Shown: positions 8,818-64,000 of the stretch, piece by piece
How the letters are laid out: every line of letters begins with the position of its first letter
Numbering within the stretch: position 1 is the stretch's first letter
Source of the DNA: Candidatus Micrarchaeota archaeon
GTDB taxonomy: Archaea; Micrarchaeota; Micrarchaeia; Anstonellales; JAHKLY01
NCBI GenBank assembly: GCA_020854825.1
Contig: JAHKLY010000001.1
Span: forward strand, 192,001 to 256,000
Direction: 5' to 3'
DNA: 64,000 nucleotides
Notes under the pieces: generated by a model
The model's database searches: none
What the model was told of the DNA's origin: nothing
What the model saw: the letters and a program-made list of their open reading frames with translations, nothing else
Translations under genes and position numbers: made by a program

Positions 8818-9744
8818 ATGAATAAAAAATCATCTAAAATATGTAAAGATATTAAATCACTTAAAATACAAGGAGCACATAGAGTTGCAAGAGAAGGTTT
8901 TAAGGCTTTCATAATTGAAATGACTTCTTTTAAAAATTCAAATCAAAAAACATTTCAAAAACATGCTAAAACAACAGCATATATTATAACAAATCTTAGA
9001 GCAACTTCTCCAATGCTTGATAATTATTTAGAAGACGCATTAGATTCAATAAATTATTTAATAAAAAAGAAAAAACCAATTCATGTGATCCAAAATTATT
9101 TAAATATACGATTAGAAGAAGTATTAGATGAATTAAAAAATAACAGGAATAAATTAGTGGTTTTTGGATCTGATTTAGTTGAAAATGGGGATATAATTTT
9201 AACTCATTGTCATTCTACTTCTGTAATAAATTCATTAATTTTAGCTAAAAAACAAGGAAAAAAATTTAAAGTATATAATACTGAATCAAGGCCAAAGTAT
9301 CAAGGACATGACACTGCAAAAGAATTAGCACATATTAAAATAGATATTACTATGAGTGTAGATTCAAATATTGGAAATATAATCGAAAAAGTAAATAAAA
9401 TATTTATAGGTGCAGACGCAGTAGATAAAAATGGAAATTTAGCAAATAAAATTGGAAGTAAAACAATAGCAGAATTAGCAAAAAACAGAAAGAAAGTGAG
9501 TATTTATTCATTTACAGAATTGTATAAATATGATAAAAGAAAAAAAATAGAAATAGAGCAAAGAGATCCAAAAGAAGTTGCTGATCCAAAAGAATTCAAA
9601 GGAGTTAAAATATTAAATCCTGCTTTTGATATTATTCAACATTCATATTTAAATGGAATAGTTACAGAAATAGGATTATTAACACCAAAACAGTTTGTAC
9701 AAAAAGCACAAAATAAAATAAGATTAAAACCTTCAATTATTTAA
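8818..9744 (+). CDS. Ribose-1,5-bisphosphate isomerase (eIF-2B alpha/beta/delta family)
   Basis: IQGA, LTHCHSTSV, TESRP..QG, GADAV..NG..ANKIGS, NPAFD; adjacent to AMP phosphorylase. Confidence 0.88.
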   Translation: MNKKSSKICKDIKSLKIQGAHRVAREGFKAFIIEMTSFKNSNQKTFQKHAKTTAYIITNLRATSPMLDNYLEDALDSINYLIKKKKPIHVIQNYLNIRLEEVLDELKNNRNKLVVFGSDLVENGDIILTHCHSTSVINSLILAKKQGKKFKVYNTESRPKYQGHDTAKELAHIKIDITMSVDSNIGNIIEKVNKIFIGADAVDKNGNLANKIGSKTIAELAKNRKKVSIYSFTELYKYDKRKKIEIEQRDPKEVADPKEFKGVKILNPAFDIIQHSYLNGIVTEIGLLTPKQFVQKAQNKIRLKPSII

Positions 9745-9754
9745 GGTGATATAA

Positions 9755-22603: not shown

Positions 22604-22635
22604 ATAATTAGTTTGATTCATTAGGTATTTAAATG

Positions 22636-24554: not shown

Positions 24555-25877
24555 GTGGAAATTACTTTTTATGGTGGAGCGCAGGAAGTTGGAAGAAGTT
24601 GTATTAATGTTCTTTCTAAAACAAAACAAATAATGCTTGACTGCGGCATAAAATTAGGGGATCCGATTGAATATCCAATAATTCCTAAAAAAGATTTTAA
24701 ACGCATTAAATATATTGTTCCTACTCATACACATCTAGACCATATAGGATATTTACCTCACATTATACAAAGGTCAAAAAGTGCTAAGATTTATGCTACA
24801 AAACCAACAAGGGATCTAATGCAGTTATTATTATCTGATTATCAAAGACTACAAGAAAAAAAAGAGTTTTCAACAAAAGATGTTGAAAAAGTTTTAGAAA
24901 AAACACAACAAGTAGAATATAAAGAAAAAATAAAATCAAAAGGAATGTTTTCCTTCATTTTATATAATTCTGGACATATTTTGGGGGGAGCAATGGTTAA
25001 AGTAGAGGATAAATGTGATTTATTATATACTGGTGATTTAAATTTAAGAGAAACAAAAATAACTGAAGGTGCTCAACTAGGAATTAAAGCAAAAAATTTA
25101 ATTTTAGAATCAACTTATGGGGGAAAAACTGATAAATTACCTTCTTTAAAAATAGCATCTCAAAATTTAATTGAATCAATTAAAGAAACTTTAATTGCAG
25201 GAGGGTATGTTTTAATTCCAACATTTGCTGTTGGGAGAGGACAAAACATAATGATGGTTATTGAAAGTTATATGAGATCTGGAGCTTTACCTAAGGTGCC
25301 TATTTACACAGATGGCATGGTGAATAGGGCAAATAGGATTTATAGGCATAATGTTATTTATGCAAAAGAAGAAATTAAAATGAGAATTTTAATGAGTGAT
25401 GAAGATCCATTCAAAAGTCCTTTTTATAAAATACCACAAACAAGAGATAGAAGTGATGTTTTATCAGAACCTTGTATTATTTTATCAACATCTGGTATGC
25501 TAACTGGTGGCCCAGTTTTAACTTATTTACAAAAATTAATTGAAGATCCTAAAAATAAATTGATTATTGTTGGTTATCAAGTAGACGGTTCATTAGGTAG
25601 AAAATTGATAGATGGGGAAAAATATGTTGAGTTAGGACATGGAGAAGATAAAAAAGAATATGAAGTTAGAATGAAAGTTGAAACTGTTCCATTTTCAGGA
25701 CATTCTGATCATGATGAATTAGTTAAATTCACTAAATCTATTAAAGGATTAAAAAAAGTATTTTTAATGCATGGTGAACCAAGAAAAATTGATGAGTTAG
25801 CGCAGGATATTCAAAAACATCTTAAACAAGTTGAAATAATAATTCCAAAAAATGAAGAATCATTTAAAATTGATTAA
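24555..25877 (+). CDS. Beta-CASP metallo-beta-lactamase ribonuclease (aCPSF-like, no KH domains)
   Basis: GGAQEVGRS, THTHLDH, GHILG, ESTYG, TSGMLTGG, FSGHSD, HGE. Confidence 0.92.
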   Translation: MEITFYGGAQEVGRSCINVLSKTKQIMLDCGIKLGDPIEYPIIPKKDFKRIKYIVPTHTHLDHIGYLPHIIQRSKSAKIYATKPTRDLMQLLLSDYQRLQEKKEFSTKDVEKVLEKTQQVEYKEKIKSKGMFSFILYNSGHILGGAMVKVEDKCDLLYTGDLNLRETKITEGAQLGIKAKNLILESTYGGKTDKLPSLKIASQNLIESIKETLIAGGYVLIPTFAVGRGQNIMMVIESYMRSGALPKVPIYTDGMVNRANRIYRHNVIYAKEEIKMRILMSDEDPFKSPFYKIPQTRDRSDVLSEPCIILSTSGMLTGGPVLTYLQKLIEDPKNKLIIVGYQVDGSLGRKLIDGEKYVELGHGEDKKEYEVRMKVETVPFSGHSDHDELVKFTKSIKGLKKVFLMHGEPRKIDELAQDIQKHLKQVEIIIPKNEESFKID

Positions 25878-27273
25878 ATAAGATATCACAAAAGATCCAT
25901 TCAGCACTTAATCCTAAACTTGAATTTCCTTCTCCTGCTGAACCTAATATTCCAAATTTTAAATGTTCATTTCCAGCAGAAATTGATCCAAAGTATCTAT
26001 TGTCTCTTGTTTGTAAAACTAAATCTACCTCAAATTTATCTTTATTTCCAATAGTTAAATCAGTTCTAATAACAGGACTTAAAACATAATATGTATATTT
26101 GGGATTTTTTTCTATTTTTCCATTTGCTCCGATTTGGATTGTTAATATTTCTGGAAATTGTAAAAATACTGTTGCCCCTCCATGGATTTCTTCCCAGTTT
26201 GTAATAGTTATGAATTTGCTATCTGCATACATAGTTCCTAATCCCAGAAAGTATTTTCCATTTCCAAAATTGGCATTTTGAAAAACTAATTTAAAACCTA
26301 ATTCTCCTCTTGATCTTGGTTTTATTTTTATTTTTTCAGTATCTTCTTTATAGTTTATTGTTTCGTCTCTATCTCTGTATTTTAAATTTTGATCTAATCC
26401 TGCAATAGCTGTAAAATATGTTTGCAAAGGAGTTATTTCAAATTGAAATTCACCTCTTAAATTTGTACATATAGTTGTTCCTATAAATTCATTTATAATA
26501 TCTTTAAATATTATATTTTCAGAAATTGGTTTGTAAATTGTTATTCCTGCATCTAAAGTTGCTTTTTCAAAAACTATTCCTTTATATTTTGGTTTTGAAC
26601 CATCTGGACATAATGCTTCTGGATTTATTGTTCCTCTTAGAAAATATGAATTTGTTGGTTGCATAATAATGTCTGATTTTTCCTCGTTTATTGTTATAAT
26701 TAAAGAAGAAACTAAAGGTTCTATCCCAAGATTATGGATTCTTTCACCAGTAACTGGATCTCTTCCAAATATTTCTAAAAATGCTTGTCTCATGTTTATT
26801 TCATTATTACTTAATTTATTTATTATTTGGTTAGCTTGATTAACATAGATATTATCTATTCTAGATAATAAAGGAATAATTCCTTTTTGTATTTCTAATA
26901 TAAAATTATTTTTGATATTTAAATTATTTGCAAAAAAAACATAATTGGCTGAATAACTTGCCATATTTTTTGAAGAATTTAGCAAATTATCTATTAAGGG
27001 CCCTACAAAACTATTCAAATCAGAACCAACCCCAACAAATTCAATACCTTCTGTTAATTCTAATATGTTTTCTTTATTTTGTCCTCTGTCATTCAATTCA
27101 ATATCTAATTTTTTAATATCTACTTGAGAACTTGAAGTATTTGAATAATACGAATTATTTATATATTGTGCATTAGTAGTTTTGGGCATTATTCCTTTTA
27201 ATAATGCAAAACCCATTCCAGTATACAACATAATGTTTCCAATAATCTTTATAGTTTTATTTTTAAGTTTCAT
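25864..27273 (-). CDS. Secreted hypothetical protein (469 aa) with beta-barrel-like C-terminus; paralogue of 29828-33733
   Basis: Signal peptide ending TNA-Q; shared FGRDP motif; amphipathic beta-strands. Confidence 0.8.
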   Translation of the reverse strand: MKLKNKTIKIIGNIMLYTGMGFALLKGIMPKTTNAQYINNSYYSNTSSSQVDIKKLDIELNDRGQNKENILELTEGIEFVGVGSDLNSFVGPLIDNLLNSSKNMASYSANYVFFANNLNIKNNFILEIQKGIIPLLSRIDNIYVNQANQIINKLSNNEINMRQAFLEIFGRDPVTGERIHNLGIEPLVSSLIITINEEKSDIIMQPTNSYFLRGTINPEALCPDGSKPKYKGIVFEKATLDAGITIYKPISENIIFKDIINEFIGTTICTNLRGEFQFEITPLQTYFTAIAGLDQNLKYRDRDETINYKEDTEKIKIKPRSRGELGFKLVFQNANFGNGKYFLGLGTMYADSKFITITNWEEIHGGATVFLQFPEILTIQIGANGKIEKNPKYTYYVLSPVIRTDLTIGNKDKFEVDLVLQTRDNRYFGSISAGNEHLKFGILGSAGEGNSSLGLSAEWIFCDILFNQF

Positions 27274-27343: not shown

Positions 27344-29821
27344 TTACAAATAATCTGGGCAATACCATACGAACCCACAGGTTACTGTACATTCGGCTTC
27401 TTCATACATAGGAATTCCTGTTGGATCAGTCCAATTAGCAAATATGGTGTAAGTACTTCGGTATGAATCTGCACCACAGTTCCATTTTATTCGTTTAATA
27501 TAATTAGGAGGAATTCTTGTTGATTCACTAATAGGGAAATAATTAGGAATTACACTCCCCTCCCAATTTACTCCACCTACATTTATAATTATCTCATCAC
27601 CATTATATAAAACTCCCCATTCTCCCTCTGCACTTCCTCCTTCTTCAATTTCTAAATCTGTGCAAAAGACATCTATGTCTACGGGTTCTGGAGGGACACA
27701 TTCTAATAGTATATTTACACAATTATCATCTTCTCTTGATTCCATTACATTAAATCTTGAGTCAGCACAGATAGTAAGAATATGGTCTTCTTCTTCCTCT
27801 ATTAAATATGAATATTCATGTGTTACACTTGAAAAAGGAGCAGTTAATGCAGTTGCAAAATCTATACATGTTCCCCAAGTATCTCCAAAAGGTCTTCCTG
27901 TATTCGGGGCTCTATGTGGTGCATGTAAAGGTAGATTTGGATTATTAGTATTAGGTAATGGAGGAACTGAATAATCTGTATTATCTAATTCATACCCATC
28001 TACTCTTCTTAATACAACATTTGTCCAGCTTGAATTTTCAGAACAAATTCCATTTGAATAAGTGCTAATGTTAATCGTCTGTGTTTCATTTACAATACAA
28101 GGACCCCTAAATAAAATTAATGGCCCCACATGTATTTCTTCTACGTCAGCCCTAACTCGTAAGTTAGTTTGAGACTCACAAACAATAGTTAAATTTCCAC
28201 AATTATTATTTTCGTTTATTTCCTTTACTTTATTGTAAACATCAGCACACACAGTAAAGGTAATATTCATATTAACTCCTACTGGACAAGTAAATTCATT
28301 AGTATTAATTTGACTTTGTCTGGGATTTAAATTAGGAACTTCATAATAAGCAGGCATAAAATAATGAGGTACATCTGATCTTAATATAGTGGTGGATGTA
28401 TTTTCAGTGTTTAATGAACCAATATTTGAAGTATTTATGTTAATTAAAACAAGGTCTCTTTCTCTTGCATATATAATCCCATTGCCTAAAGGACTCGTTA
28501 AACTTGCAATTAAATCAGGTCCTTGAATAATAGGAACTTCAACTTCCCATTCATTTATCGGGTCATTACAATAAGGGGAAGTAGTATCAAAATATAATAT
28601 GAAATTTATTTCGTCTCCAGGAGTATATGTTAAAGAAGCTTCTAATGTTCCTTCAACTATAAATAAAAATTCACCTGGTCCTGAACCTGGAGGAGTAATT
28701 TCTATATTATAAGGAGTATCTGGAGTAAAAATAAAGTCATGATTATTTGGTATTATGTTTGTAATATTAAATGGCATAGTAGTTCTATTTAAGAATAAAT
28801 GAATTATTACATTTTGTGTTTCTCCTGGATTTATGACAATTGGAGAGCTTCCACTTCCATCAGTCACATACACATTATTAATTTCAATTTGTGGATCTGC
28901 AACTATAAATTGATAATTTAATGTTTCACTAGGATTAAACCTGAACAAATTATCTATACAATTTGTTGATCCTTGACTAGGAAGACAATACTTTGTTATA
29001 ACTGAGTATCTACTATTTGTACATAATTGTCCATCTGCATATCTTTTAGAAAAATATAAACATTTAACTTCATCAAGATTAATATCAATAACATGTGTAC
29101 CAATTTCAGAAACTGTAAATGAATTTGAGTAATCTTCTATTGGGCCATTATAAAACAAAGCCCCATCAATATAAACTTTAAGATTTCCTTGGCAAATTAA
29201 ACTTACATTTACGCCAGAATTAGGATAATTTATTGTTTCATCTTGTTTTGGATAAAATCTTACATTTGTTAATTGATTTAAAAAATCATTAAAAGAATTA
29301 TAATAACAGCCGCTTGAAGTGGGATATACATCTGCAAAACATCCTTCACTAGTAGAATAATATCTGTTAATTCCTTCTTGATCAAAAACAATTTTTAAAT
29401 TATTTGTGGTTCCTGGGGGAGCACAACAGCTACCTGGGGCAGAAGGATTACAACCCATTCCTTGTATTCCATTTAAATCTATATGTGCAGACATTCCTAA
29501 ATACATTTGATTTGTTTGGATATTTTCATTTAGATTAACATCTATATTAACTTCACCCGCACATATAACTGCATTAATAGGTAAATCACTAGGTTCATCA
29601 CCAGAAAGAACAGTAGAACTAGTAGATATTATTTCGCTCATATATACTTGAAAAGGATTTGTTTGAATATATGTGTGAGGTCCTGATACTGGAGGAGGGC
29701 CCGGGTTTCTAATTTGATATAATTTTATTTGAGGAAAATTAAAATTTTCAGATTCAACCGCAAAAATATTGCTAATTAAAACTAATGTTAAAATTATCAC
29801 AACTGTTTTATTTACTTTCAT
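27344..29821 (-). CDS. Secreted Cys-rich surface protein with CARDB/Ig-like domains (825 aa)
   Basis: Signal peptide ending IFA; PDL...N.G...CADVYNKVKEINENNNC and CADSRFNVMESREDDNC CARDB signatures. Confidence 0.8.
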   Translation of the reverse strand: MKVNKTVVIILTLVLISNIFAVESENFNFPQIKLYQIRNPGPPPVSGPHTYIQTNPFQVYMSEIISTSSTVLSGDEPSDLPINAVICAGEVNIDVNLNENIQTNQMYLGMSAHIDLNGIQGMGCNPSAPGSCCAPPGTTNNLKIVFDQEGINRYYSTSEGCFADVYPTSSGCYYNSFNDFLNQLTNVRFYPKQDETINYPNSGVNVSLICQGNLKVYIDGALFYNGPIEDYSNSFTVSEIGTHVIDINLDEVKCLYFSKRYADGQLCTNSRYSVITKYCLPSQGSTNCIDNLFRFNPSETLNYQFIVADPQIEINNVYVTDGSGSSPIVINPGETQNVIIHLFLNRTTMPFNITNIIPNNHDFIFTPDTPYNIEITPPGSGPGEFLFIVEGTLEASLTYTPGDEINFILYFDTTSPYCNDPINEWEVEVPIIQGPDLIASLTSPLGNGIIYARERDLVLININTSNIGSLNTENTSTTILRSDVPHYFMPAYYEVPNLNPRQSQINTNEFTCPVGVNMNITFTVCADVYNKVKEINENNNCGNLTIVCESQTNLRVRADVEEIHVGPLILFRGPCIVNETQTINISTYSNGICSENSSWTNVVLRRVDGYELDNTDYSVPPLPNTNNPNLPLHAPHRAPNTGRPFGDTWGTCIDFATALTAPFSSVTHEYSYLIEEEEDHILTICADSRFNVMESREDDNCVNILLECVPPEPVDIDVFCTDLEIEEGGSAEGEWGVLYNGDEIIINVGGVNWEGSVIPNYFPISESTRIPPNYIKRIKWNCGADSYRSTYTIFANWTDPTGIPMYEEAECTVTCGFVWYCPDYL

Positions 29822-29827
29822 ATATAT

Positions 29828-32800
29828 CTACCTCAATATTTCTATTCCTATTCCCCATTGGTTTATTGGGTCTTCTTCTTTTATTATGGAATTTTTAAAT
29901 TCTCCTCTTAATCTAATTTCGAAGGATTCTCTTCCTATATTTATTTTTCTTGTTATACTTACTCCTAATGTGCCAGTTGCACCCAATCCCAGTATATGTC
30001 TTTGATTAATCTCTTCTCTATTATAAACAGCTAATGCACTTGCATCTGCCCCAATTCCCCAGTTTTTACCTATTGGAACATCAATATTTAAATTCATATT
30101 TGGAGACATAGTTAAATATCCACCACCTGCAAGTACTCCTTCAGGAGTTGTATATTCTAAATGTGTTCCTATGCCAATTTTAATATTATTATTATTTTTT
30201 ATTGGATTAATTAAAATCATTCCCCCTCCATATAATCTTTCAATATTTTTTTCATCGTAGAATTTTACTCCTCCATATATTGCAGTTTTATCTAAAAGTT
30301 TTCCAAAAATGGATTCAGATTTAGTTAAGGGTTGGACAACAGCACCTATTCCATATCTTATTTTTTTTTCTATTTCTTTTTCATTATTTAATATAGATTC
30401 TAAATCTAGATCTGATAATATTTCTTCTCTTAGTGCTTTTAATGTAAGTATAGTCTTTAAAGGAACTATATGAAATCCCATTTCTGCTATTGCTCTTGTA
30501 GTTAATGCTTTTTCTGAAAAATTAGTTATTTCTTTTATATCATCTCTAGTCACAATAATTTCTCCACTTTCTCCGAGTATTTCTGCTGCATATTCAGTAG
30601 TTTCAAAACCCGCTTTAAAACTATAAAAATTTATTCCGTTTTCAGAATATAGTGATTTTATAGTTTTTGTAGAAAACATTGCACCATATGTGTATGACGG
30701 GACCACACGAATATTAACTCTAGATCTAGCTTTTCCAACCATTGCACCAGAAATAATTTCAAATCTTCCTTCACTTACTGGATCTCCGGAGATTGGGTCT
30801 CTACCAAATAATAGTTTATATGCTTCATCAATTGTAATTCTGTTTGCAGTTAAATCAGTAAGTACTTCATCTAACATACCTTCATAATCTGTGTAAGGGT
30901 CTGATCTATCTATATCCTTAATCAAAGGTCGTAGATACTCTTCTATATTCGCAATAAAATTAGTTTTTAAATTATTGTAGGCAATTGTTCCTCCGAATTG
31001 ATCATATGTAGATAAGTTAGCAACAATTGTAATGTTTTCTAATCCTTCTTTTAAATAATTCGCAGTTTCTTGATAAGAATTTAGATCAGCTCCCGTTTCT
31101 AATTGAGGAACAGTAAAAGCAACTAAAACGTTTTGTATCTCTGAAGGCATGTTAACTTCCGGCATTTCTGTTATTTTTTCTCTTGAACCTATTATTATTT
31201 TTCCAACTAATGTAGGATTATCTGCAGGTTCCATTAATCTGATATACTCATGTTCAAATGGAAGTGCATATATTTTATATTCAGTTGATGATCCTTCTTC
31301 AGGAACTTCTCCTATATTTCTTGCATCTAATGTGTAATCAATTTTTCCATCTTCTCCTGCTTTTGTTATTTCACAAGAAACTATTTTCCCTTCAGAATTT
31401 ACTACATAAAGATAAATCCATGAATTTTTTGCTTCTTCGTCTTTAATTTTATTTTCATTTAATTTATTATTTTTATCTGTACTAAAAAATGTTCCTCCAT
31501 AAAATATTTGAGTATTAAATTGTAGATTAAATGAATTATCTGTCAAATCATCTATAATTAATGTTTGTCGCCCATCTCTTGTTTGTCTTCTTTGGAATAA
31601 TAATTGAACTGTTACTAAATTTTCTTCTTTTAAAGTTGTTAAATCTCCAGTTATAACTCCTTCACGTTTGTCTAATATAACATTTGATTTACCAACAGAT
31701 AATTGTAGTTTTGTAACTCCTTGTGTTAATTTATCAAAATCAAATTCAGGGACATAAAACCCATTTGCCCCAAGAGATTCTAAAGAGTTCTTTAATTTTT
31801 GTCCTTCTGGTTTTGTCCAAAAATCCCATTCTTTCCAAGTGCAGATTAAGGAGTAATTTAATCCTAATCTTCCGCCCGCAGCAGTATACATTAAGAAGAA
31901 CATTCTCTCATCTTTCATATTTTCAAGTGAATTCCTAATATCTCTTTTTGTTATATTTGGATTTAATTGTTTATTTATGTCTTCAGAAGATCTGACTATA
32001 TATATCCAAGCTAAATCTGTCATTTTATCTAATATTTCTCTTGATTCTTCTTTTCCTTCTAAAACAAGATTCCTCATTTTTTCCATTGTCCATCCTTTTG
32101 AATCAGCAAATTTTTCTAGTTCTCCAAGAAGTTTTTCTGCATTTATATATGCATTAATGTGGTTTTTGATAGGGTATTTTATAAAATCTCCCATTTTTCC
32201 TTCTTTTGTCATTATTTCATTAAATTCAGTGGAGCTTATTTTGTGGTCTCCATATCTATTACTAACACCATAGGTTAAACCACACAATATGAATGCCAAT
32301 TTATACTGTTCTTGTAGATAATTAGGTATTGAAGAATAAGAAACTATATTTGGATTATTATAATAAGATTGGATAGCAGTTTTTAGATTATTATCCATGA
32401 AACTCAATTTATAAATATCTTGTAATGTTAAGTTTTCTTTATTTGCTAGTACATACAATTCTTGTAATCTTGAATTTGATTCACCAAATGTATTTTTTAA
32501 TTCCAATGCAATTAAAATATTTGGAAGATTGATAAAACCTTTGGTAACTATATCTATCATTTCAGTTGTGGGGTTTCTCCAATCTACATCTGTTGTTATT
32601 CTTAAATCTTCTAAAGATTCGACGATTAATGGATGTAACGTATTCATACCTATCATCCATCGTCTAAAATTACTATCCTTTGTAAATTGGTTAAAAAATA
32701 AATCTTTATTTTCATTGTTTATTCTTAAGTCTAAAGTTAATTCTCCTTGTTCATTTTTGGTGATTTCATATTTGATCATATTTGTACCATAGTATATATC

Positions 32801-33733
32801 TGCATATCTTATTAAATCAAAAACAATTCCATTTCTAAATTGTTTAAGATAATCTTCAAAATCAAATGTTGTTTGATTTGGATTACCAATATTTACGAGA
32901 TATATCTTATCTTCAATTGAAATCTCGGTTTTATTTATTTGTTCATACGTTTTTCCTTGTATATTTTCATAAGAACTTCCAATAATTCCAGCAGTTTTTG
33001 AAGCATTAAATGATACATTAGATAATGTTCCATCTCCAAAATCATACCCACTTATAATTGCATCTAAGCTGACTTTACCCTCTAGTGCTGAATTTAAAAT
33101 ATCAATAATAGGCATATTTGTAACTAAACTTGGTTCTGTTTTACTAGGAACAATTCCAGTTAATTTTTCGTGGGTTACAAAACCCCTATCAAAAAATTGA
33201 TCATATAATTTATCAATCTGTATTATATTATCTTTTTGTTGTGCATCAAATTCTTTTTTTTTACCTTGGATAATTATAGAGGTATGGTAGGTTCTCAGAA
33301 ATTCTTCTTGTATTTTATTTGTTTTGATAGTTCTTGTTTCTTTATGGATTGCATTAAATCTACTTCCAGGATTTATTTGTGTTTGTAAAAGAGTGTATAC
33401 AATTCTCTGTGCTTCAATTTCTAATGATTCAGAAGTATTTTCTAAGGCAGTTTTAATATCTTTTTTTAATGCGTCATTATTTCTAATAAAATTTTGGTTT
33501 TCAAAAAAATTCATCAAAATATCTATTTTTGATTCAATTGTTGAATGCTGATTTCCCATACCATAATCACCTTCATAATTATTATAATTATCTCTCTTTA
33601 AAAAAGTATTTAATAGTTCCTTTTCAATTAAAGGTTGGGCAAAACTCAATGTGCTTTGAAAAAGCATAGCTCCAGCTGCTAGTTTTATAGTAAAATTTCT
33701 AAATTTTTGATTTTTAAAAAAGTGCTTTTTCAT
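29828..33733 (-). CDS. Secreted giant hypothetical protein (1301 aa) with beta-barrel-like C-terminus
   Basis: Signal peptide ending SFA-Q; FGRDP motif; strands ending QWGIGIEILR. Confidence 0.82.
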   Translation of the reverse strand: MKKHFFKNQKFRNFTIKLAAGAMLFQSTLSFAQPLIEKELLNTFLKRDNYNNYEGDYGMGNQHSTIESKIDILMNFFENQNFIRNNDALKKDIKTALENTSESLEIEAQRIVYTLLQTQINPGSRFNAIHKETRTIKTNKIQEEFLRTYHTSIIIQGKKKEFDAQQKDNIIQIDKLYDQFFDRGFVTHEKLTGIVPSKTEPSLVTNMPIIDILNSALEGKVSLDAIISGYDFGDGTLSNVSFNASKTAGIIGSSYENIQGKTYEQINKTEISIEDKIYLVNIGNPNQTTFDFEDYLKQFRNGIVFDLIRYADIYYGTNMIKYEITKNEQGELTLDLRINNENKDLFFNQFTKDSNFRRWMIGMNTLHPLIVESLEDLRITTDVDWRNPTTEMIDIVTKGFINLPNILIALELKNTFGESNSRLQELYVLANKENLTLQDIYKLSFMDNNLKTAIQSYYNNPNIVSYSSIPNYLQEQYKLAFILCGLTYGVSNRYGDHKISSTEFNEIMTKEGKMGDFIKYPIKNHINAYINAEKLLGELEKFADSKGWTMEKMRNLVLEGKEESREILDKMTDLAWIYIVRSSEDINKQLNPNITKRDIRNSLENMKDERMFFLMYTAAGGRLGLNYSLICTWKEWDFWTKPEGQKLKNSLESLGANGFYVPEFDFDKLTQGVTKLQLSVGKSNVILDKREGVITGDLTTLKEENLVTVQLLFQRRQTRDGRQTLIIDDLTDNSFNLQFNTQIFYGGTFFSTDKNNKLNENKIKDEEAKNSWIYLYVVNSEGKIVSCEITKAGEDGKIDYTLDARNIGEVPEEGSSTEYKIYALPFEHEYIRLMEPADNPTLVGKIIIGSREKITEMPEVNMPSEIQNVLVAFTVPQLETGADLNSYQETANYLKEGLENITIVANLSTYDQFGGTIAYNNLKTNFIANIEEYLRPLIKDIDRSDPYTDYEGMLDEVLTDLTANRITIDEAYKLLFGRDPISGDPVSEGRFEIISGAMVGKARSRVNIRVVPSYTYGAMFSTKTIKSLYSENGINFYSFKAGFETTEYAAEILGESGEIIVTRDDIKEITNFSEKALTTRAIAEMGFHIVPLKTILTLKALREEILSDLDLESILNNEKEIEKKIRYGIGAVVQPLTKSESIFGKLLDKTAIYGGVKFYDEKNIERLYGGGMILINPIKNNNNIKIGIGTHLEYTTPEGVLAGGGYLTMSPNMNLNIDVPIGKNWGIGADASALAVYNREEINQRHILGLGATGTLGVSITRKINIGRESFEIRLRGEFKNSIIKEEDPINQWGIGIEILR

Positions 33734-45875: not shown

Positions 45876-46415
45876 TTATCTATGTTTAAATTTCAAGTTT
45901 TTTTGATTGGCTCCATATTTTTTAAGAACCATACTGCTTGTTAAATTACATGTATCATCCATTTCAAATCCTAATTTTTTTACTAATTTTTCTATATCTT
46001 TAGGTTTTCCTTCAATTTCCATATATGCAGGTATTTTAGGGTGTTGGTCTAATTCAATTTTAACTTTTCCAAGAACATATGAAGTTCTTATTTTTTCACA
46101 TTCATTAATACATTTTAAACCTATTTTTTTGAATATTTTTTTTGTACTTCCAAAATCACTTACTTTGGTTTCTGTTTCTTCCCTAACTTTGAATTTACCT
46201 TTGTTCTTTCGTTTAGTTTTATGTGTTATTTCTACAGTGTTTCCATATTTTCTTAGTCGTAAAATAGATTTACTTTTTGATATTTTTTGATCTTCAAAAT
46301 CAAAGAAATTAATAGTTACTAACCCTTTATATGTTTGTTTTGCACCTAATGTTTTAAGTTTAGATTTAATTGTGTTAATATTAATGTTTAATATCTTTAT
46401 TTCTGTTTCATCCAT
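45876..46415 (-). CDS. CYTH domain protein (class IV adenylate cyclase/triphosphatase-like)
   Basis: ETEIK, LRLR, REETE, EKIRTSY, YMEIEG. Confidence 0.9.
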   Translation of the reverse strand: MDETEIKILNININTIKSKLKTLGAKQTYKGLVTINFFDFEDQKISKSKSILRLRKYGNTVEITHKTKRKNKGKFKVREETETKVSDFGSTKKIFKKIGLKCINECEKIRTSYVLGKVKIELDQHPKIPAYMEIEGKPKDIEKLVKKLGFEMDDTCNLTSSMVLKKYGANQKNLKFKHR

Positions 46416-51221: not shown

Positions 51222-52004
51222 ATGGATTTCTTAACTGCGATAATTCTAGGTATAATTCAAGGAATAACTGAATGGCTACCTATAAGTTCTTCTGCGATGG
51301 TTACTTTAGCTGGAAAATTAATTTTTAATTTTAATTATTCAGAAGCATTAGGTAATGCGATTTGGCTGCATGGGGGTACTTCATTAGCAGCCATAATTTA
51401 TTTTAGAAATGAAATAATCAATCTTTTCAAAAGCATTTATAAAAAAGATAGAAGCAAAGATTTATTGGTTTTTTTAAGTATAACAACACTTTTTAGTTTT
51501 ATAATCGCAGGGATATTAAGTTTATTTTTATTTTCAATTCATATTCCTGAAGTAATTTTTACATTATTTATTGGATTTTTTTTATTAATAATTGCGTTTT
51601 TACATAAAAATAGAAAAGAATCTAAAATAGAAGAAGCACTAACAAAAACAAAAGCAACAGTGGTGGGGGTATTGCAAGGAGTATCAGTTTTACCTGGGAT
51701 AAGTAGATCTGGAGTTACAGTTTCTGTGTTATTAATTCAAAATTTTTCTTTGAAAAGTTCATTTAAATTAAGTTTTTTAATGAGTATCCCTGCAACATTA
51801 GGTGCATCTATTTTTCTTCCATTACTAAAACAAGATTTTGTTATAACTGGGCCTTTAGTTTTAGGAGGAATTGTTGCATTTATAACTGGGTTGTTAACTA
51901 TAAGAATGTTGATGACTTTTGCTGAAAAAGTTAATTTTTATAAAGCAACATTTATTTTAGGTTTAGTTGTTGTATTATTAGGTTTATTTCAATTGTTTTT
52001 CTGA
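51222..52004 (+). CDS. uppP: Undecaprenyl-diphosphate phosphatase (BacA/UppP family)
   Basis: QGITEWLPISSS, PGISRSG.T, SFLMSIP. Confidence 0.9.
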   Translation: MDFLTAIILGIIQGITEWLPISSSAMVTLAGKLIFNFNYSEALGNAIWLHGGTSLAAIIYFRNEIINLFKSIYKKDRSKDLLVFLSITTLFSFIIAGILSLFLFSIHIPEVIFTLFIGFFLLIIAFLHKNRKESKIEEALTKTKATVVGVLQGVSVLPGISRSGVTVSVLLIQNFSLKSSFKLSFLMSIPATLGASIFLPLLKQDFVITGPLVLGGIVAFITGLLTIRMLMTFAEKVNFYKATFILGLVVVLLGLFQLFF

Positions 52005-52513: not shown

Positions 52514-53041
52514 ATGGCATTTAAAAATGAGATCCAATTTAAACATAAAAGTGATTCATATACATTAACTCAAGTAATTAATATGTTAAACTCATTAGGA
52601 TATACTAGTGATAAGTTATCAAGAGATGAAAAAGCAGGCATAATTTTAGGAGAAGGGATAAAAGAGATGATACAACAATTTAATAGAGATTTTGATATTA
52701 AAGATCAAAGTGGAAATTTAACTGATTTTGTTTTAAGTAAGATTATAGAAGCAGGTAAAATAATTAAAGCACAAAGTCAATTAAAAACTTTAAATTATTT
52801 TAAAGGAGAACCAAATGGGATGTTAGATGAAGAAACAGAATTAGCTATAAATAAATTTAAAGTGGATAATAACATCTCAAAAATTGACGGGAAATTAGAT
52901 AAAGAAACAATAAACTTATTAGATGAAAAAATAGATGTTTTAATGTCTTTAAAAGGGTATGTTCCAGTTAAGATAGATAATTCTGAATTTACTAATTTTT
53001 ATTATGTAGATCAAGATGGGACATTGACTGTTTCAAGATAA
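52514..53041 (+). CDS. Protein with two peptidoglycan-binding (PG_binding_1-like) domains
   Basis: AQSQLKTLNYFKGEPNGMLDEETELAINKFKVDNNISKIDGKLDKETINLL, plus a degenerate first copy (LNSLGY...IQQFNRD). Confidence 0.75.
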   Translation: MAFKNEIQFKHKSDSYTLTQVINMLNSLGYTSDKLSRDEKAGIILGEGIKEMIQQFNRDFDIKDQSGNLTDFVLSKIIEAGKIIKAQSQLKTLNYFKGEPNGMLDEETELAINKFKVDNNISKIDGKLDKETINLLDEKIDVLMSLKGYVPVKIDNSEFTNFYYVDQDGTLTVSR

Positions 53042-53276: not shown

Positions 53277-54671
53277 TTATAATATTTCTCTGCCTGTTTG
53301 GTTCTTTTTAAAAGCAAAATCGCTCATTTCTGTTGAATACCAATTAGAATGTTTGATGCTTAGTTGTTCTTCAATTGTTTTATTTTCTTCTATAGCTTTT
53401 TTAACATGTGTTTTATCTATTAGTTCTGCATCTTCAGAAACTGCAATATCTCCTGCCATTCTAATTATCCCATTAAGTATCCTAAATCTAAGTGAATATC
53501 CATTTTCATTATCAATTTTTTTAGCTAATTCTTTTGATTTTTCAATTATAATTTCTGCTGCGTCTAAATTCATATCTGGTATTTTTCCATCTTTTTTTAT
53601 TTCTTGAGCAATGAATTGAAATAGTTTTTTCTTATTTTCTTCGTTTTCTTCCATAACTGTATCAAAAAGAATTTCATACCCTTGGCCTCGAATTCTGTTT
53701 CTTAATGCAGGAAGAATGTTAGGTAAATCATTAATATTTGCGGATGCAATTAAAATAAAATCACAAGGCACATTTTCCACCTTTATTGATGCTCCTGAAC
53801 TTGTTGGGTTTTTACTTGTAATTGAAAATTTTTTATCCTGCATAGCAGTCAACAAATATCTTTGGATTTCTCCTAAGGATGATAATTCATCTAAATATAA
53901 TACTCCTTCATGTGCTTCATGCACCGCGCCTGGTAGAACTCTTAAATAAGAAGGAGTACCAATTTTTTTATGATTTCCATAGGGATCATGTTGTATATCT
54001 CCTAAAAGTTCAGTTTCGCTTGCTCCAATTGCTTGTACAAACGGATTTCTATCTAATGGAATAAGTGTTTTTTCTTTTAACTTTAATTCTATTTCCTTTA
54101 CTTTTTTTTCTTCTTTTTCCGTCAAGCTTAAAATTCTATTTCCTTCTCTTTTGAATATAATTCTTTCCTCCTTTCCATTTGTTATTCGTGTTGAATCAAT
54201 ACTGTCTTTTCTTGTTGTTTTTAACCCTAGGATGTCATGAGCTAGTTGGTATTTTTGAGCACCACAATATGGACAAACCCATTCTTCTGCGTTACTTAAT
54301 TTTGAACATCTTTTACATTTAAATCCAAGCGCTTCAGATACAAAATAAGGAACATAAATAGGATCAATGTAAGTTCCCACTTTTTCTTTTTTCTTATTTT
54401 TTTTGATTTCTGTTATAGTTTTAATTTTTATTAATGGTTTGTTTTCGTTTTTTTCATTATGTGTAACTACTATCTCTTCTTTTGGTTTTGGTATTAGGTT
54501 AGAAATAGATTGTGCTATCATTGATTTACCTGTTCCGGGGGGGCCAATTAGTAATAAATGTCTTTTTTGCTTTACACAAATTTTTGCATAATTTACAGCT
54601 CTTTCTTGTCCAATAACTGTATCTATTGGATTTTTAGGAATCAAAATATCTTTAGTAGTTTCACAACCCAT
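53277..54671 (-). CDS. LonB-like AAA+ ATPase with Zn finger and no protease domain
   Basis: VIGQE, GPPGTGKS, ELLGDIQHDP, PGAVHEAHEGVLYLDE, LRNRIRGQGYE; CKRC...CPYC insert; ends after the lid. Confidence 0.85.
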   Translation of the reverse strand: MGCETTKDILIPKNPIDTVIGQERAVNYAKICVKQKRHLLLIGPPGTGKSMIAQSISNLIPKPKEEIVVTHNEKNENKPLIKIKTITEIKKNKKKEKVGTYIDPIYVPYFVSEALGFKCKRCSKLSNAEEWVCPYCGAQKYQLAHDILGLKTTRKDSIDSTRITNGKEERIIFKREGNRILSLTEKEEKKVKEIELKLKEKTLIPLDRNPFVQAIGASETELLGDIQHDPYGNHKKIGTPSYLRVLPGAVHEAHEGVLYLDELSSLGEIQRYLLTAMQDKKFSITSKNPTSSGASIKVENVPCDFILIASANINDLPNILPALRNRIRGQGYEILFDTVMEENEENKKKLFQFIAQEIKKDGKIPDMNLDAAEIIIEKSKELAKKIDNENGYSLRFRILNGIIRMAGDIAVSEDAELIDKTHVKKAIEENKTIEEQLSIKHSNWYSTEMSDFAFKKNQTGREIL

Positions 54672-54694
54672 ATTAAAATTACATAAAATAAGCT

Positions 54695-55948
54695 TTAAAC
54701 ACTTTCTCCTATTAAACAACTTTGAGTATAATCAGTAATTTTTATTTTAAGAATTTTACCTATGTTTAAATTTTTAGTTTTAACTGCGATTTGTTTGTAA
54801 TTAATATCTCTGCCTGTCCATGTTTTTTGTTTTTCTGTTATTAAAATTTCACAAATTTTATTTTTTTGTTGTTTGTTTTTTTCTAAAGATATATTACTAA
54901 ATAATTCGCTGGTTTTTTTAGTTCTTTTTTTAATTATATGATTATCCAACTGTTTCATATTTTTAGCAGGAGTTCCTGGTCTAGGAGTAAATCTTGAAAT
55001 ATTTAATACTTCAAATTTAAATTCTTTAATTAAATTTAATGTTTCTTGAAAATCTTTTTCTGTTTCAGTAGGAAAACCGATAATTACATCTGTTGCAATT
55101 GTCATATTGGGAATTTTTTTTTTAAATTTTTTCCATATTTTTTTATATTCCTGAAGGGTATAATATCTATTCATACTCTTTAGTATTTTATTACTCCCAG
55201 ATTGTAAAGGAATGTGTAAAAATTTATACATTTTTTTATTTTTATAAATTTCAATAAGTTCATCTAAAAAAGTATAAACATGATTTGGATTAATCATTCC
55301 TAATCTAATATAATAATCTCCTTTAATCTTTAAAATTTCATTCAATAGTTCAATTAGATTTGTGTTAATATCAATACCATAAGCACCAGTATCTTGTGCT
55401 GTTAATTGAATTTCTTTTGCCCCGTGTTTTACTGCTTTTTCAACTTCTAATTTTATTTTTCTTATTGTATAACTTTTTAATTTTCCTCTTGCTAAATGTG
55501 TTTCACAATATGTACAATTTCCTAAACATCCTTCTGCAAGAGGAACTGATGCAATAATCCCCGAATAAATAGTTGGTAATTCAGATTTATCATATTTTTT
55601 GATATTGGTATATTTTTTTCCTTTTAATGCATTAGTGCATGCAGTATATATTTTAGAAATAGAACTTGTTGATAATATAGGGATATTTGGATATTTTTCT
55701 CTAATTAAAGGTTCTCTTAAATATAAACATCCTGTTAAAACAGCAGGTTTTTTTTCTTTGTATAAATCTTGTATTTTTTTTAAAATTCTATTTTCAGTTT
55801 GATGTTTAACAGTGCAAGAATTAAGTATTATTACGTTTGCATTTTTCTCATTAGTTTCTTTACAATTTTTAGAATTTAGGATTGCTCGCATTTTATTTGA
55901 ATCTGTTTTATTTAACGTACATCCATAAGTGATTATATGATATTTCAT
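54695..55948 (-). CDS. tRNA methylthiotransferase (MtaB/CDKAL1-like radical SAM)
   Basis: TYGC..N..DS, NSCTVK, GCLGNCTYC, QDTGAYG, RLGMINP, LQSGS, GFPTET, TRAM-like end. Confidence 0.92.
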   Translation of the reverse strand: MKYHIITYGCTLNKTDSNKMRAILNSKNCKETNEKNANVIILNSCTVKHQTENRILKKIQDLYKEKKPAVLTGCLYLREPLIREKYPNIPILSTSSISKIYTACTNALKGKKYTNIKKYDKSELPTIYSGIIASVPLAEGCLGNCTYCETHLARGKLKSYTIRKIKLEVEKAVKHGAKEIQLTAQDTGAYGIDINTNLIELLNEILKIKGDYYIRLGMINPNHVYTFLDELIEIYKNKKMYKFLHIPLQSGSNKILKSMNRYYTLQEYKKIWKKFKKKIPNMTIATDVIIGFPTETEKDFQETLNLIKEFKFEVLNISRFTPRPGTPAKNMKQLDNHIIKKRTKKTSELFSNISLEKNKQQKNKICEILITEKQKTWTGRDINYKQIAVKTKNLNIGKILKIKITDYTQSCLIGESV

Positions 55949-55971: not shown

Positions 55972-56394
55972 TTATATTAGTTGGTCAAATTCATGTAGGT
56001 CTGCATTTATTTTAGTAAATAATCTTTCTTTTTCTTCTTTTTCAAAATACCTATCAATTAATCTTCTAATATTAAAATAGATAAAATGTGCTAATGTGTC
56101 TCTTTTTACTTGTATATTTTCAGGCCATAAATTTGAATTTTCTGCAAAACAAGGAAAAACTTCATAAGCTAAATACTCTAATAATTGTTTTTTATATTCT
56201 AATCCTTCTGTTTTTTCTATTATTCTATCAATTTCTTCTAAATTTTCTAAACCTTTAAAACAAAAGTCTTGAATTGTCTTGAATATCTCTTGTTTTTCAG
56301 GATCTCTAGTATTTGTTTTAGAGACAGGAAATTCAATGGTTCTTTTAATTCCCTTTTCTGTTAATTTTACAGGTAATACTTTTGGTGTTGGCAT
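55972..56394 (-). CDS. Hypothetical protein divergent from the GGDEF gene
   Basis: Start at MPTPK with BRE/TATA 22 nt upstream. Confidence 0.6.
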   Translation of the reverse strand: MPTPKVLPVKLTEKGIKRTIEFPVSKTNTRDPEKQEIFKTIQDFCFKGLENLEEIDRIIEKTEGLEYKKQLLEYLAYEVFPCFAENSNLWPENIQVKRDTLAHFIYFNIRRLIDRYFEKEEKERLFTKINADLHEFDQLI

Positions 56395-56482
56395 GTTTAT
56401 TTTGTGTTTTTCTGTCTTTATAAATGTTTTTATTGAATACTCAACAGAAAGGTTTAAAAATGAAAAACACAGCAACTGATAC

Positions 56483-57544
56483 ATGCAAAAAGAAATACTT
56501 TCAACCTTACAAGCTTTAAAAAAAGCTTTAGAAACAAGTCCAGAAGATGTAGTGGTTGAATTATTAGAAATGGTTATAAAAACTACAAATGCAGACACAG
56601 CTAGATTATGGATTGAAGACCCTGAAAAAAGAGATTATGTTAAATGTGTAGCAAGTGTTCCAATTGATTATGAAAAATGGAAAAAAATTAAAGAATTACG
56701 AGTAAGAAAATCTTTAAAAATTGTGAGTGATTCTTTGAAAAATCCAGCAAAGGTTTATGAAAAATTGATCAATGGAAATTCAAAAACAAAAGATAGTTAT
56801 GCTAAAGTAACAGAACAAAAAGGAGTAAATTTAGTATGTGGTATTGAATTAGGAGGAAAACATAATACTGGATTAATAGCAATTGATTTTGGAGAAAAAC
56901 AAGTTTCTAAACAAGAGTTGGTACATGCAAAAGAAGCATTAGAAACTTCAACTACTTTAATTGGTTTATTATTTACAAATGAGAATTGGTTGACGAATTT
57001 AGAAAAATTATCCAAAATGGATGAATTAACAAGAATATATAATGTTAGAGAATATAGAACACAATTAGATAGTGAGATAAATAAAAGAAAAAAAGGAAAA
57101 GATAAAAGTCCATTATTTTTAGCTGAATTTGATATTGATGATTTTAAACAAATAAATGATAATTATGAAAGTCATGTTGTGGGAGATATAGTTTTAGAAA
57201 GATTAGGGAAAAGAATAACAAAATTTATTGATGATAATAATCTTTCTGAATTTATGCATGCATATAGGAGAGGAGGAGACGAATTTGCTATACTAATATG
57301 GGCTAAAAATAGAAATGAATGCAGAGATATTATATCAGAGTTATTTAAAAATTTAACAAGGAATATGAGTATAAAAAGAGAAAAAGAAACATTAACCATT
57401 CCTATAAGTATAAGTATGGGTTGTGGTATGTTTGAAGATAGATATACTTCTCAAGATTTTAAAAATACAATTGATGCACGAGTATATTATGCTAAAAAAA
57501 CAGGTAAAAATAAAATTATAGGTCAAAAAGAACACAATATTTAA
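56483..57544 (+). CDS. GAF-like + GGDEF diguanylate cyclase
   Basis: DELTRIYN, FDIDDFKQIND, HVVGD, RRGGDEF, SISMG, D..VY.AK.TGKN. Confidence 0.92.
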   Translation: MQKEILSTLQALKKALETSPEDVVVELLEMVIKTTNADTARLWIEDPEKRDYVKCVASVPIDYEKWKKIKELRVRKSLKIVSDSLKNPAKVYEKLINGNSKTKDSYAKVTEQKGVNLVCGIELGGKHNTGLIAIDFGEKQVSKQELVHAKEALETSTTLIGLLFTNENWLTNLEKLSKMDELTRIYNVREYRTQLDSEINKRKKGKDKSPLFLAEFDIDDFKQINDNYESHVVGDIVLERLGKRITKFIDDNNLSEFMHAYRRGGDEFAILIWAKNRNECRDIISELFKNLTRNMSIKREKETLTIPISISMGCGMFEDRYTSQDFKNTIDARVYYAKKTGKNKIIGQKEHNI

Positions 57545-58002
57545 TAAGTACGTTTTAATGCTTTCATGACTTTTGTTATTTGTTTAAAAGAGGATTCAAC
57601 TTTTTTGGTATACATTTCTTCAAGTGAAATATTTAATTCATTATTTTCAGGTAAGGACCCGGTTATAAAATAATATTTTCTTTGTTTTGAATCAATTAGA
57701 CCTTTATTTTTTAATTGTAATAAATGATATCTAACTGCTTTTGGATTTGGTTCTTCTTTTTTATTTTTTTCAAGTTCATCTAGTATGTTATGGATATCTG
57801 GATTTTTATTTTTAAAGTGGAAATGCAACAGAACTTCTAATATATCTAACATTAAAGTTCTTGTTTCATTTGGGGAGATTAATCCTAAAGATAATGCTAA
57901 CCATCTAACCATCGCTTTTCTAGTTAGTAAAACATCTTGAGAAATTTTAATATCTCTCAAAACAATTTCATCTTTTATTAATTCTGCTTCTGGAAATCCC
58001 AT
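57541..58002 (-). CDS. Winged-helix domain protein
   Basis: KAVRYHLLQLKNKGLI...YY helix-turn-helix and wing. Confidence 0.7.
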   Translation of the reverse strand: MGFPEAELIKDEIVLRDIKISQDVLLTRKAMVRWLALSLGLISPNETRTLMLDILEVLLHFHFKNKNPDIHNILDELEKNKKEEPNPKAVRYHLLQLKNKGLIDSKQRKYYFITGSLPENNELNISLEEMYTKKVESSFKQITKVMKALKRTY

Positions 58003-62881: not shown

Positions 62882-64000
62882 TTATAAATTAATTGCCCAT
62901 TTATAAAATGGAATAACATTAATTCCATTTATCTTTTTTTCTTCATTCCATGTTATTATATATTTATTTTTTGCCTTTATTTTATTTAATGCATTAACCT
63001 CTCTTTCAGTAGCTCCATTAAGTTCATAACAAACCTGAACTGCAGTGTTTTTATAATAAAAATCAATTTCATAACCATTTTTTTGATAATATGGAGTTAT
63101 TCCATTAAATAATAAATGAAGAAAAACTGCGTTTTCTAATCTTTTATCCACATCCTTCATAAATAAAAATCCCTTCGCTTCTATTAGACCATTATCTATA
63201 CAATACACTTTTTTCGGATTCACACTTTGTTGTTTTAATGAAAAAGCAAACATTTTAACAAATAAAAACAAATATGTTTCTTGAAAATATGAAGAAAATC
63301 TTTCGATTGTATCGTGGGATACTTTCATAAATTTTGAGATTCTATTAAATACATGAAGGTTTGCAGTATTACTTAAATAATATATGGCAAGTTCATTTAA
63401 TTTATCAAATTCTTTTATTTTGTACCTTGAAATTATATCTCTATTTATTAAATCTAAAAAATAAGTTTCAAGAATTATTTTTTTTTCATTAGATAATACA
63501 ATTTTTGGAAATCCTCCCCATTTTAAATATTCTTTTGTTTCATTTAAAATTTCATTTTTCTTAAAGATTAATTCATTTTTTTCTCCTGTTAAAATTCCCT
63601 TAAAATTAAGAAATTCCTTTAAGTCTAAAGGATAAACAGTCATATTAATATGTCTCCCTGTGAGCAGTGTTCCATATTCTTTACTTATAAAATTAGAAAC
63701 TGAAGCAGTGATTATAATTGTTTCATAATCTCCTTTTTCATGAATAGAACGCACAAATTTTTCCCAACCCGAAATTTTTTGTACTTCATCTAAAAAAAGA
63801 TAAGTTTTATTTTTTGGATTTATATTTATTTTATATGTTTCATATATTTTGTGTAAAAATTCAAGATTTAAATTTAAAAATCTTGATTCTTCAAAATTTA
63901 TATACAAAATTTTTTTTGTCTCTTTTTTTGATAAAGAATTAATGAACTGTTTTATTAATGTGCTTTTACCTGATCTTCTTGGCCCCGTAATTGTTACTAT
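62882..64000 (-). CDS. AAA_14/DUF4143 ATPase, 5' end outside the window
   Basis: Frame open to the window edge: ITGPRRSGKST, LFLDEVQ, LTGRH, GGFP, KVYCIDNG, ENAV, EIDF. Confidence 0.9.
   Translation of the reverse strand: MVTITGPRRSGKSTLIKQFINSLSKKETKKILYINFEESRFLNLNLEFLHKIYETYKININPKNKTYLFLDEVQKISGWEKFVRSIHEKGDYETIIITASVSNFISKEYGTLLTGRHINMTVYPLDLKEFLNFKGILTGEKNELIFKKNEILNETKEYLKWGGFPKIVLSNEKKIILETYFLDLINRDIISRYKIKEFDKLNELAIYYLSNTANLHVFNRISKFMKVSHDTIERFSSYFQETYLFLFVKMFAFSLKQQSVNPKKVYCIDNGLIEAKGFLFMKDVDKRLENAVFLHLLFNGITPYYQKNGYEIDFYYKNTAVQVCYELNGATEREVNALNKIKAKNKYIITWNEEKKINGINVIPFYKWAINL

Follow-up and report, generated by a model that had tools for sequence, protein, structure and literature searches.

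The locus

A 64,000-nucleotide stretch of DNA from a Candidatus Micrarchaeota archaeon (contig JAHKLY010000001.1), referred to below as the window, carries a gene for a two-domain protein that combines an N-terminal sensor-like domain with a GGDEF domain, the catalytic domain of enzymes that make cyclic diguanylate (c-di-GMP). An earlier reading, made from the sequence alone, had described it as an apparently active diguanylate cyclase with a GAF-like sensor. The gene and its two domains are as follows.

56483..57544, forward strand: gene of the GAF-like/GGDEF protein, an open reading frame (ORF) of 353 amino acids with an ATG start, predicted to be soluble
56483..56986, forward strand: N-terminal sensor domain, residues 1-168, with a GAF fold and an orphan by sequence (AlphaFold2 model and Foldseek; no Pfam match)
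56996..57523, forward strand: GGDEF catalytic domain, residues 172-347, preceded by a helical linker (HMMER alignments to 3ign, 5llw, DosC 4zve and PleD 1w25)

The start codon is consistent with that of its three orthologues. No hydrophobic segment is present in the 353-amino-acid protein, the highest 19-residue Kyte-Doolittle mean being 0.88, and the protein is probably cytosolic.

The GGDEF domain

The identity of the catalytic domain is clear. Pfam GGDEF (PF00990) matches residues 178-344 over profile positions 2-161 of 161 (E 2.1e-24; 86.5 bits against a cut-off of 23.8), and TIGR00254 matches with an E of 2.3e-26 (92.5 bits; cut-off 37.4). A phmmer search of the PDB returns 3ign (5e-14), the phytochrome-linked cyclase 5llw (1e-12), DosC (1.6e-12) and PleD (2.6e-11). 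The motifs listed in the sequence-only reading are all found: DELT at residues 180-183, DIDDFKQIND at 217-226, GD at 234-235, RRGGDEF at 262-268 and AKKTGKN at 337-343. The DxLT turn, the metal-binding aspartate D217, R262 and G264-G-D-E-F268 are invariant in the four orthologues.

The predicted structure agrees with these assignments. The full AlphaFold2 model has a predicted local distance difference test score (pLDDT) of 74.9; the GGDEF part lies mostly at 74-92, and the last 21 residues are poorly modelled (pLDDT <50). The model superposes on the GGDEF domains of 4zvg/4zvh, 3ign, 6tts and 4iob with target-normalised template modelling (TM) scores of 0.68-0.73, and a Foldseek search with the full model retrieves 5llw at an E of 1e-10. 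The Cas10 palm profile PF22335 reaches 18.3 bits, under its cut-off of 27. A role in defence was rejected, as PADLOC gave zero matches for the GGDEF protein and its four nearest neighbours.

Residue correspondences were read from the HMMER alignment to PleD (1w25), in which the literature numbering is the HMMER index plus one. In that numbering D217 is equivalent to D327 of PleD, N225 to N335, D235 to D344 and R262 to R366; GGDEF 264-268 corresponds to GGEEF 368-372, K338 to K442 and K342 to R446. The RxxD product-inhibition site (I-site) of PleD, residues 359-362, aligns with S255-E-F-M258. The I-site slot is thus filled by SEFM and no RxxD is present, as had been noticed from the sequence. 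RxxD is missing from all five family members, whereas it is present in 102 of the 121 GGDEF proteins compared. Since the I-site is absent, no shut-off of the enzyme by its own product is expected.

The specificity position of the xxGD motif is an aspartate (D235) and not a serine, and N225 is also kept. The serine variant is the mark of GGDEF proteins that make cyclic GMP-AMP (cGAMP), the Hypr class (PMC13725321). The aspartate therefore favours GTP specificity over cGAMP synthesis.

The N-terminal sensor domain

The N-terminal domain is an orphan at the sequence level. A Pfam scan of N-terminal residues (1-168/170) of the four orthologues gives zero matches even at E<=10, including GAF, GAF_2 and GAF_3. 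A phmmer search with residues 1-170 against 1.84 billion representatives finds only three matches: the representative of its own clade, a 170-amino-acid fragment and a 407-amino-acid protein with the same two-domain layout. With so few relatives, no ligand can be inferred through homology.

At the structural level the domain, modelled alone (residues 1-168), has a pLDDT of 86.5 and a predicted TM score of 0.84. The best Foldseek match is the GAF domain 3ci6_B (TM 0.61/0.61, E 4.4e-6), and further top GAF matches are 5w10, 2y79, 3trc and 4g3v (TM 0.55-0.62, identity 8-16%). The periplasmic domain of T4 holin scores similarly in the same list. A feature search of the ESM Atlas points to GAF clusters at a score of 0.93, which is a lead only. 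The model thus confirms the GAF-like sensor of the sequence-only reading at the level of the predicted fold only.

An archaeal gene

The window has 70 ORFs, and these include genes for aEF1A, aIF5B, Spt5, Hjc, an LSM protein, S24e and FtsZ, as well as form III RuBisCO, AMP phosphorylase and ribose-1,5-bisphosphate isomerase. Directly flanking the locus are an archaeal/eukaryotic e-MtaB-type MiaB-like-B methylthiotransferase, a LonB-type AAA protein and RLI/ABCE1. Archaeal genes therefore stand on both sides of the cyclase gene at distances of <=1.5 kb, that of RLI being 1.5 kb. Among named relatives of the RLI, the closest is a protein from 'Candidatus Micrarchaeia archaeon' (86% identity), and the next ones are from Micrarchaeota at ~60%. 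The NCBI taxonomy places the class Micrarchaeia in the kingdom Nanobdellati (DPANN archaea).

The composition of the gene is that of its surroundings, as the sequence-only reading had proposed from its base content. GC content is 26.0%, compared with a mean of 28.1 for genes of the window (standard deviation 3.5), and GC at third codon positions (GC3) is 10.2% compared with a mean of 14.7. The synonymous-codon usage score is above the mean (z = +0.89). An archaeal TATA promoter had also been suggested, and TATA-like hexamers are located upstream of both the cyclase gene and a divergent gene, described below.

56453..56458, forward strand: TATA-like hexamer TTTAAA, -30 from the ATG of the cyclase gene (sequence; positional test)
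56419..56424, reverse strand: TATA-like hexamer TTTATA, -30 from the ATG of the divergent gene (sequence; positional test)

The motif TTTAWA is found at -31 to -25 from the ATG in 23 of the 70 ORFs, where ~2.3 would be expected from background frequency. The element of the cyclase gene is of the host's own type, and its position suggests a leaderless or near-leaderless transcript. The 60 nt upstream of the 70 ORFs fall into two start classes: the TTTAWA class, with possibly leaderless transcripts, and many others with a GGTGA-type ribosome-binding site 5-10 nt upstream of the start.

The GAF-like/GGDEF gene is native to a Micrarchaeia (DPANN) archaeon, because its flanks are archaeal, its GC, GC3 and codon use are host-like and its TATA element has the host-type position. 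The protein cluster is recorded on five contigs, the longest of 274,482 nt. Insertion by a mobile element was considered and rejected, as only AT-rich chance repeats are found around the locus and zero tRNA genes are present in the window.

Relatives, conservation and phylogeny

Full-length relatives in a set of 5.8 billion clustered proteins number three, with identities of 71, 65 and 64%; the 64% one is named 'Candidatus Micrarchaeia archaeon'. Beyond these three orthologues identity falls to 26-39%, mostly over the GGDEF half only, and all the named proteins there are bacterial. Twelve residues selected as key do not vary among the four orthologues, in which only 92 of the 176 domain columns are invariant (chance probability 2.9e-4). 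The orthologues differ at 28-36% of GGDEF-domain positions, and retention of 12 of 12 key residues amid this divergence argues for selection on catalysis.

A phylogeny had been proposed in the sequence-only reading as a check for a DPANN clade. A tree built from 121 GGDEF domains groups the four orthologues in one clade, with support of 99 in the SH-aLRT branch test and a stem of 1.48 changes per site. The backbone of the tree is unresolved and there is no supported sister to this clade, and thus no donor lineage can be named. A distant member of the family, P0122 (407 amino acids), has the same sensor-plus-GGDEF layout, an N-terminal extension of ~45 residues and a retained RRGGDEF motif. On its long branch it falls outside the clade.

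These data bear on the possibility of an artefact, in which bacterial DNA has been joined to an archaeal contig or the gene has arrived by very recent transfer. Named GGDEF relatives outside the four-member clade are almost all bacterial, and earlier surveys suspected contamination where bacterial-type regulators were found on archaeal contigs (PMC5847659). However, the flanking genes, composition, codon use and promoter element are archaeal or host-type, and the protein cluster is found on several contigs, up to 274 kb in length. In addition, the 64% orthologue and the 86% RLI relative are each recorded on a 41,874-nt contig, with sources ncbi, jgi and lgn. The low identity to the nearest proteins outside the clade and the long clade stem also speak against a recent arrival. 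Contig chimerism, which the sequence-only reading had named as a possible refutation, is not borne out; chimerism or recent transfer is very unlikely, to the point of being barely credible.

Comparison with known cyclases

A close known parallel is Dcsbis (PA2771) of Pseudomonas aeruginosa (4zmu; PMC4937426). Dcsbis is likewise soluble, with a GAF domain followed by a GGDEF domain and a canonical active site. It is 338-341 amino acids long compared with 353 here, and the Foldseek match has an E of 1.5e-9 over 336 columns. In Dcsbis the RxxD I-site is present and is blocked by a loop of the GAF domain (PMC4937426), whereas in the archaeal protein the I-site residues themselves are absent. Both proteins, the archaeal one by prediction, escape classical product inhibition. 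They differ in that identity is only 16-17%, the archaeal GAF-fold domain is not seen by Pfam, and one protein is from a bacterium and the other from an archaeon.

PleD and WspR are class I reference cyclases. By the PleD alignment, the catalytic and substrate-binding positions correspond to those of the present protein, and fold matches include 2wb4, 2v0n, 1w25 and 3bre. Identity is 21-24%, and these cyclases have a REC input domain and an RxxD I-site, in contrast to the GAF fold without I-site of the archaeal protein.

The largest group among the sequence matches consists of bacterial GGDEF proteins of ~345 amino acids, the named ones being from Thermoanaerobaculia. They are similar in length to the archaeal protein, and some, such as P0018, have Pfam GAF_2 plus GGDEF. 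Identity is 28-33% over ~55-69% of the query, and for P0073 it is 26% over 95%. Unlike the archaeal protein, members of this group have an RxxD motif (RPTD) and the usual spacing between the ND and GD motifs, and they are not a supported sister in the tree.

Another GGDEF protein has been described from the same phylum. This is a REC-GGDEF response regulator of 'Candidatus Micrarchaeum acidiphilum', whose GGDEF domain is inactivated, and it was reported with a caveat of contamination (PMC5847659). By this description it is set apart from the present protein, which is canonical and carries a GAF fold in place of REC.

Proposed mechanism

The intact-looking diguanylate cyclase that had been read from the sequence is borne out, as it concerns the DNA, by the motifs, fold, flanks and composition. 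We consider it somewhat probable that the protein is a native soluble sensor enzyme, in which a helical linker joins a GAF-fold domain to a class-I-type GGDEF domain, and that it functions as a diguanylate cyclase gated by a ligand and free of product feedback. Catalysis, the product, a dimer, ligand gating and any downstream target are inferred, on the model of Dcsbis and further solved bacterial GAF-GGDEF or sensor-linked cyclases.

In the mechanism proposed, the protein would act as a homodimer in which each GGDEF domain binds one GTP-Mg2+. The metal would be held by D217 and E267, the guanine read by N225 and D235, and the phosphates held by K338 and K342. A small ligand on the GAF-fold domain may alter the packing of the linker helices (residues 143-204 in the model), and the two half-sites would be brought face to face. 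Two GTP molecules would then be condensed to c-di-GMP with release of two pyrophosphates. Output would be set by the state of the sensor, by expression and by whatever degrades the nucleotide. A two-copy prediction of the homodimer scored 0.22 against a mark of 0.42 and returned no answer either way.

Archaeal GGDEF proteins in the literature

In a 2018 census, the GGDEF protein of Methanocella arvoryzae is given as the only one known in archaea (PMC5847659), and a 2023 review states that c-di-GMP was undetected in archaea (PMC10249747). Sidorov et al. (Mol Microbiol, September 2026; PMC13725321) describe archaeal GGDEF proteins from isolates together with 20 from metagenome-assembled genomes (MAGs), mainly of DPANN and class II clades. 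The statement in the sequence-only reading that c-di-GMP signalling is not established in archaea is thus outdated with respect to archaeal GGDEF proteins. Assays in Salmonella and Escherichia coli were mixed, with some clear cyclase-dependent phenotypes (PMC13725321), and these phenotypes provide a precedent for the activity proposed here.

The proteins of Sidorov et al. resemble the present one in several respects. Their archaeal context was checked by way of flanking genes, they mostly have canonical GG(D/E)EF motifs and signature residues, GAF is among their N-terminal domains, and none has the Hypr serine (PMC13725321). The strings RRGGDEF and LQALKKALE are absent from the text of the supplementary sequence file. 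The one Micrarchaeota protein in that file, MBI5036943.1 (RIFHPSGDEF), is a different and degenerate protein. An overlap of the 20 MAG proteins with the orthologue P0004 is possible. Two papers were found that name both Micrarchaeota and c-di-GMP, and c-di-GMP is absent from the titles and abstracts of both.

Points against a working cyclase

A number of observations weigh against activity as a diguanylate cyclase. The four close orthologues have one additional residue and a glycine-to-serine change between the guanine-binding N225 and D235 (NDNYESHVVGD). The usual six-residue spacing is found in 115 of 117 other GGDEF proteins by search pattern and in P0069 by eye, the pattern in P0101 not being resolved; within the 121 proteins compared, the insertion is seen only in the four clade members. 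At the position of R446 of PleD the protein has K342 in place of arginine, with K338 kept; lysine at this position is common, occurring in 106 of the 121 GGDEF matches, a set that was chosen by similarity to the query. No NCBIfam equivalog model for a named cyclase matches the 353-amino-acid protein at its cut-off, and hence it falls outside any named subfamily. The distant P0122 does not have the C-terminal K..GKN motif and may be a degenerating paralogue or lineage.

Signalling partners are also missing from the window. No EAL, HD-GYP, PilZ or MshEN-type domain is found among the 70 ORFs, which were scanned at E<=0.01 and 1e-5, with E<=0.1 for the 27 unassigned ORFs. No Rfam family reaches its gathering score in the window, and hence there is no c-di-GMP riboswitch. 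The domesticated c-di-GMP system of the sequence-only reading thus finds no partner domain or riboswitch here, and this absence says little, as it covers 64 kb of genome.

Experimental work on related proteins points the same way. Among the first seven MAG GGDEF proteins to be cloned, none was consistent across all three assays, and the riboswitch assay was positive for only three of them, although their motifs were mostly canonical (PMC13725321). This mixed record makes motif integrity a weak predictor of activity. c-di-GMP itself is reported as still undetected in any archaeon (PMC10249747; PMC13725321).

This raises the question of whether the GGDEF domain is catalytically silent or only weakly active, and serves as a GTP sensor or a protein-protein scaffold (class-III-like despite its canonical motifs), with the GAF-fold domain as the real functional part. 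The clade-specific insertion and G-to-S change in the N225-D235 loop, the want of a c-di-GMP signalling partner in the window and the degenerate C-terminal phosphate-binding motif of P0122 are all in keeping with such a role, and several archaeal GGDEF proteins gave phenotypes independent of catalysis (PMC13725321). On the other hand, the retention of all 12 catalytic residues in orthologues as divergent as these is unexpected if catalysis were dispensable, and the insertion maps to a loop that joins two helices in the predicted model. We consider a silent domain unlikely, but it deserves to be taken seriously.

The same insertion bears on the nature of the product. An active cyclase might yield another or a mixed product (3'3'-cGAMP, c-di-AMP or a linear pppGpG-type molecule) in the manner of Hypr GGDEF enzymes, as an insertion beside the base-recognition residues could shift base selection. 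An AMP-salvage route encoded in the window would make adenine nucleotides metabolically prominent, which is only suggestive. D235, however, is the aspartate and not the serine of cGAMP-making GGDEF proteins under the rule cited above (PMC13725321), and N225 is retained; a product other than c-di-GMP appears quite unlikely.

A further alternative is that c-di-GMP made by the archaeon acts on a host or partner cell, via delivery at the site of contact, and not inside the archaeon. Neither a receptor nor a phosphodiesterase is found in the window, as would be expected of such a role, but partner absence judged from 64 kb is weak evidence, and the locus has no linked gene for export or delivery. 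We know of no c-di-GMP receptor in the archaeal host of a Micrarchaeon that has been grown in co-culture. DPANN archaea have a host-attached lifestyle, and growth as a biofilm was important in the culturing of this Micrarchaeon; the host in that co-culture was, however, archaeal, a member of Thermoplasmatales (PMC8975820). Action on a partner cell is decidedly improbable, and the proposal in the sequence-only reading that a bacterial partner is manipulated is unsupported.

For the diguanylate cyclase that we favour, the missing I-site and the one-residue loop insertion are two clade-specific traits worth attention.

Neighbouring genes

The genes on either side of the cyclase gene are listed below.

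55972..56394, reverse strand: divergent orphan gene of 140 amino acids (begins MPTPKV), an ORF that shares the 88-bp spacer 56395-56482 with the cyclase gene
57541..58002, reverse strand: convergent gene of 153 amino acids whose 3' end overlaps the GGDEF stop by 4 nt (HTH_12, E 0.0023; 18.3 bits against a cut-off of 21.4)

The divergent gene of unknown type, 88 bp away, is as the sequence-only reading had described it. Its 140-amino-acid product could be assigned to no family of Pfam, NCBIfam or PADLOC, and a search of the ESM Atlas yielded no usable match. In the set of 5.8 billion proteins its family has three members: itself, an 87% relative and a 50% relative. The 50% relative and the 71% GGDEF orthologue, P0002, are each on an 11,462-nt contig with sources lgn and ena. 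From such matching contig records, together with those of the 64% orthologue and the RLI relative, rather than from observed gene order, we infer a conserved neighbourhood and co-occurrence of cyclase and orphan. The 87% orphan relative, P0244, is on a 285,757-nt contig for which no cyclase cluster is listed; the close relative that holds it may be without the cyclase, unless the gene was simply overlooked. The convergent 153-amino-acid neighbour shows a weak, sub-threshold winged-helix signal.

Two further observations concern the upstream side. The LonB-related AAA+ protein at 53277-54719 (464-480 amino acids) matches the LonB model to about position 401 of 608 and appears to be without the protease domain. 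At 52514-53041 is a gene for a 175-amino-acid protein whose peptidoglycan-binding domain is of bacterial type (PG_binding_1, E 3e-12); this gene adjoins one for undecaprenyl-diphosphatase (BacA) at 51222-52004. This pair could bear on the kind of cell to which the organism attaches.

Other features of the window

Two regions, 8818-11365 and 23158-24462, encode ribose-1,5-bisphosphate isomerase (IF-2B family), AMP phosphorylase (three thymidine-phosphorylase-type domains) and a form III-type RuBisCO large subunit. These three enzymes constitute the archaeal AMP-salvage route, which is frequent in DPANN genomes. Four large ORFs, at 12405-15170, 25864-27273, 27344-29821 and 29828-33733, specify proteins of 921, 469, 825 and 1301 amino acids, with no Pfam family except one CARDB domain in the 825-amino-acid protein. 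They may be symbiont surface proteins.

Genes for two AAA_14/DUF4143-type ATPases are found at 62882-63643 and 21371-22621. The first of these matches the PADLOC candidate model PDC-S01 at positions 148-407 of 412 only (E 2.8e-58), and the N-terminal ATPase part is seemingly missing. A CYTH-domain protein is encoded at 45876-46415 (E 1.4e-15). Triphosphatases and class IV adenylate cyclases both belong to the CYTH family, and this protein is thus another possible nucleotide-signal enzyme in the window.

Significance

As a discovery the gene is incremental, as it adds one more example to the archaeal GGDEF proteins already in print. Whether such genes are functional or mere remnants of transfer was posed as a question in the 2026 paper (PMC13725321). 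With its long and clearly archaeal contig, host-type promoter element, host-like codon use and orthologues in related genomes, the locus provides a clean test case. A canonical active site without a product-inhibition site should also ease heterologous detection.

A broader proposal, which we regard as doubtful, is that c-di-GMP serves this Micrarchaeia lineage as an endogenous messenger. A GAF-gated cyclase free of feedback would make it, novel receptors would read it, and the pathway would control attachment to the host or life in a biofilm. The divergent 140-amino-acid orphan and the convergent winged-helix protein would be the first candidate receptors in that circuit. If true, this would be the first c-di-GMP circuit with archaeal-specific components. 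A signalling enzyme that is retained in a genome-reduced symbiont is probably important in its contact with the host.

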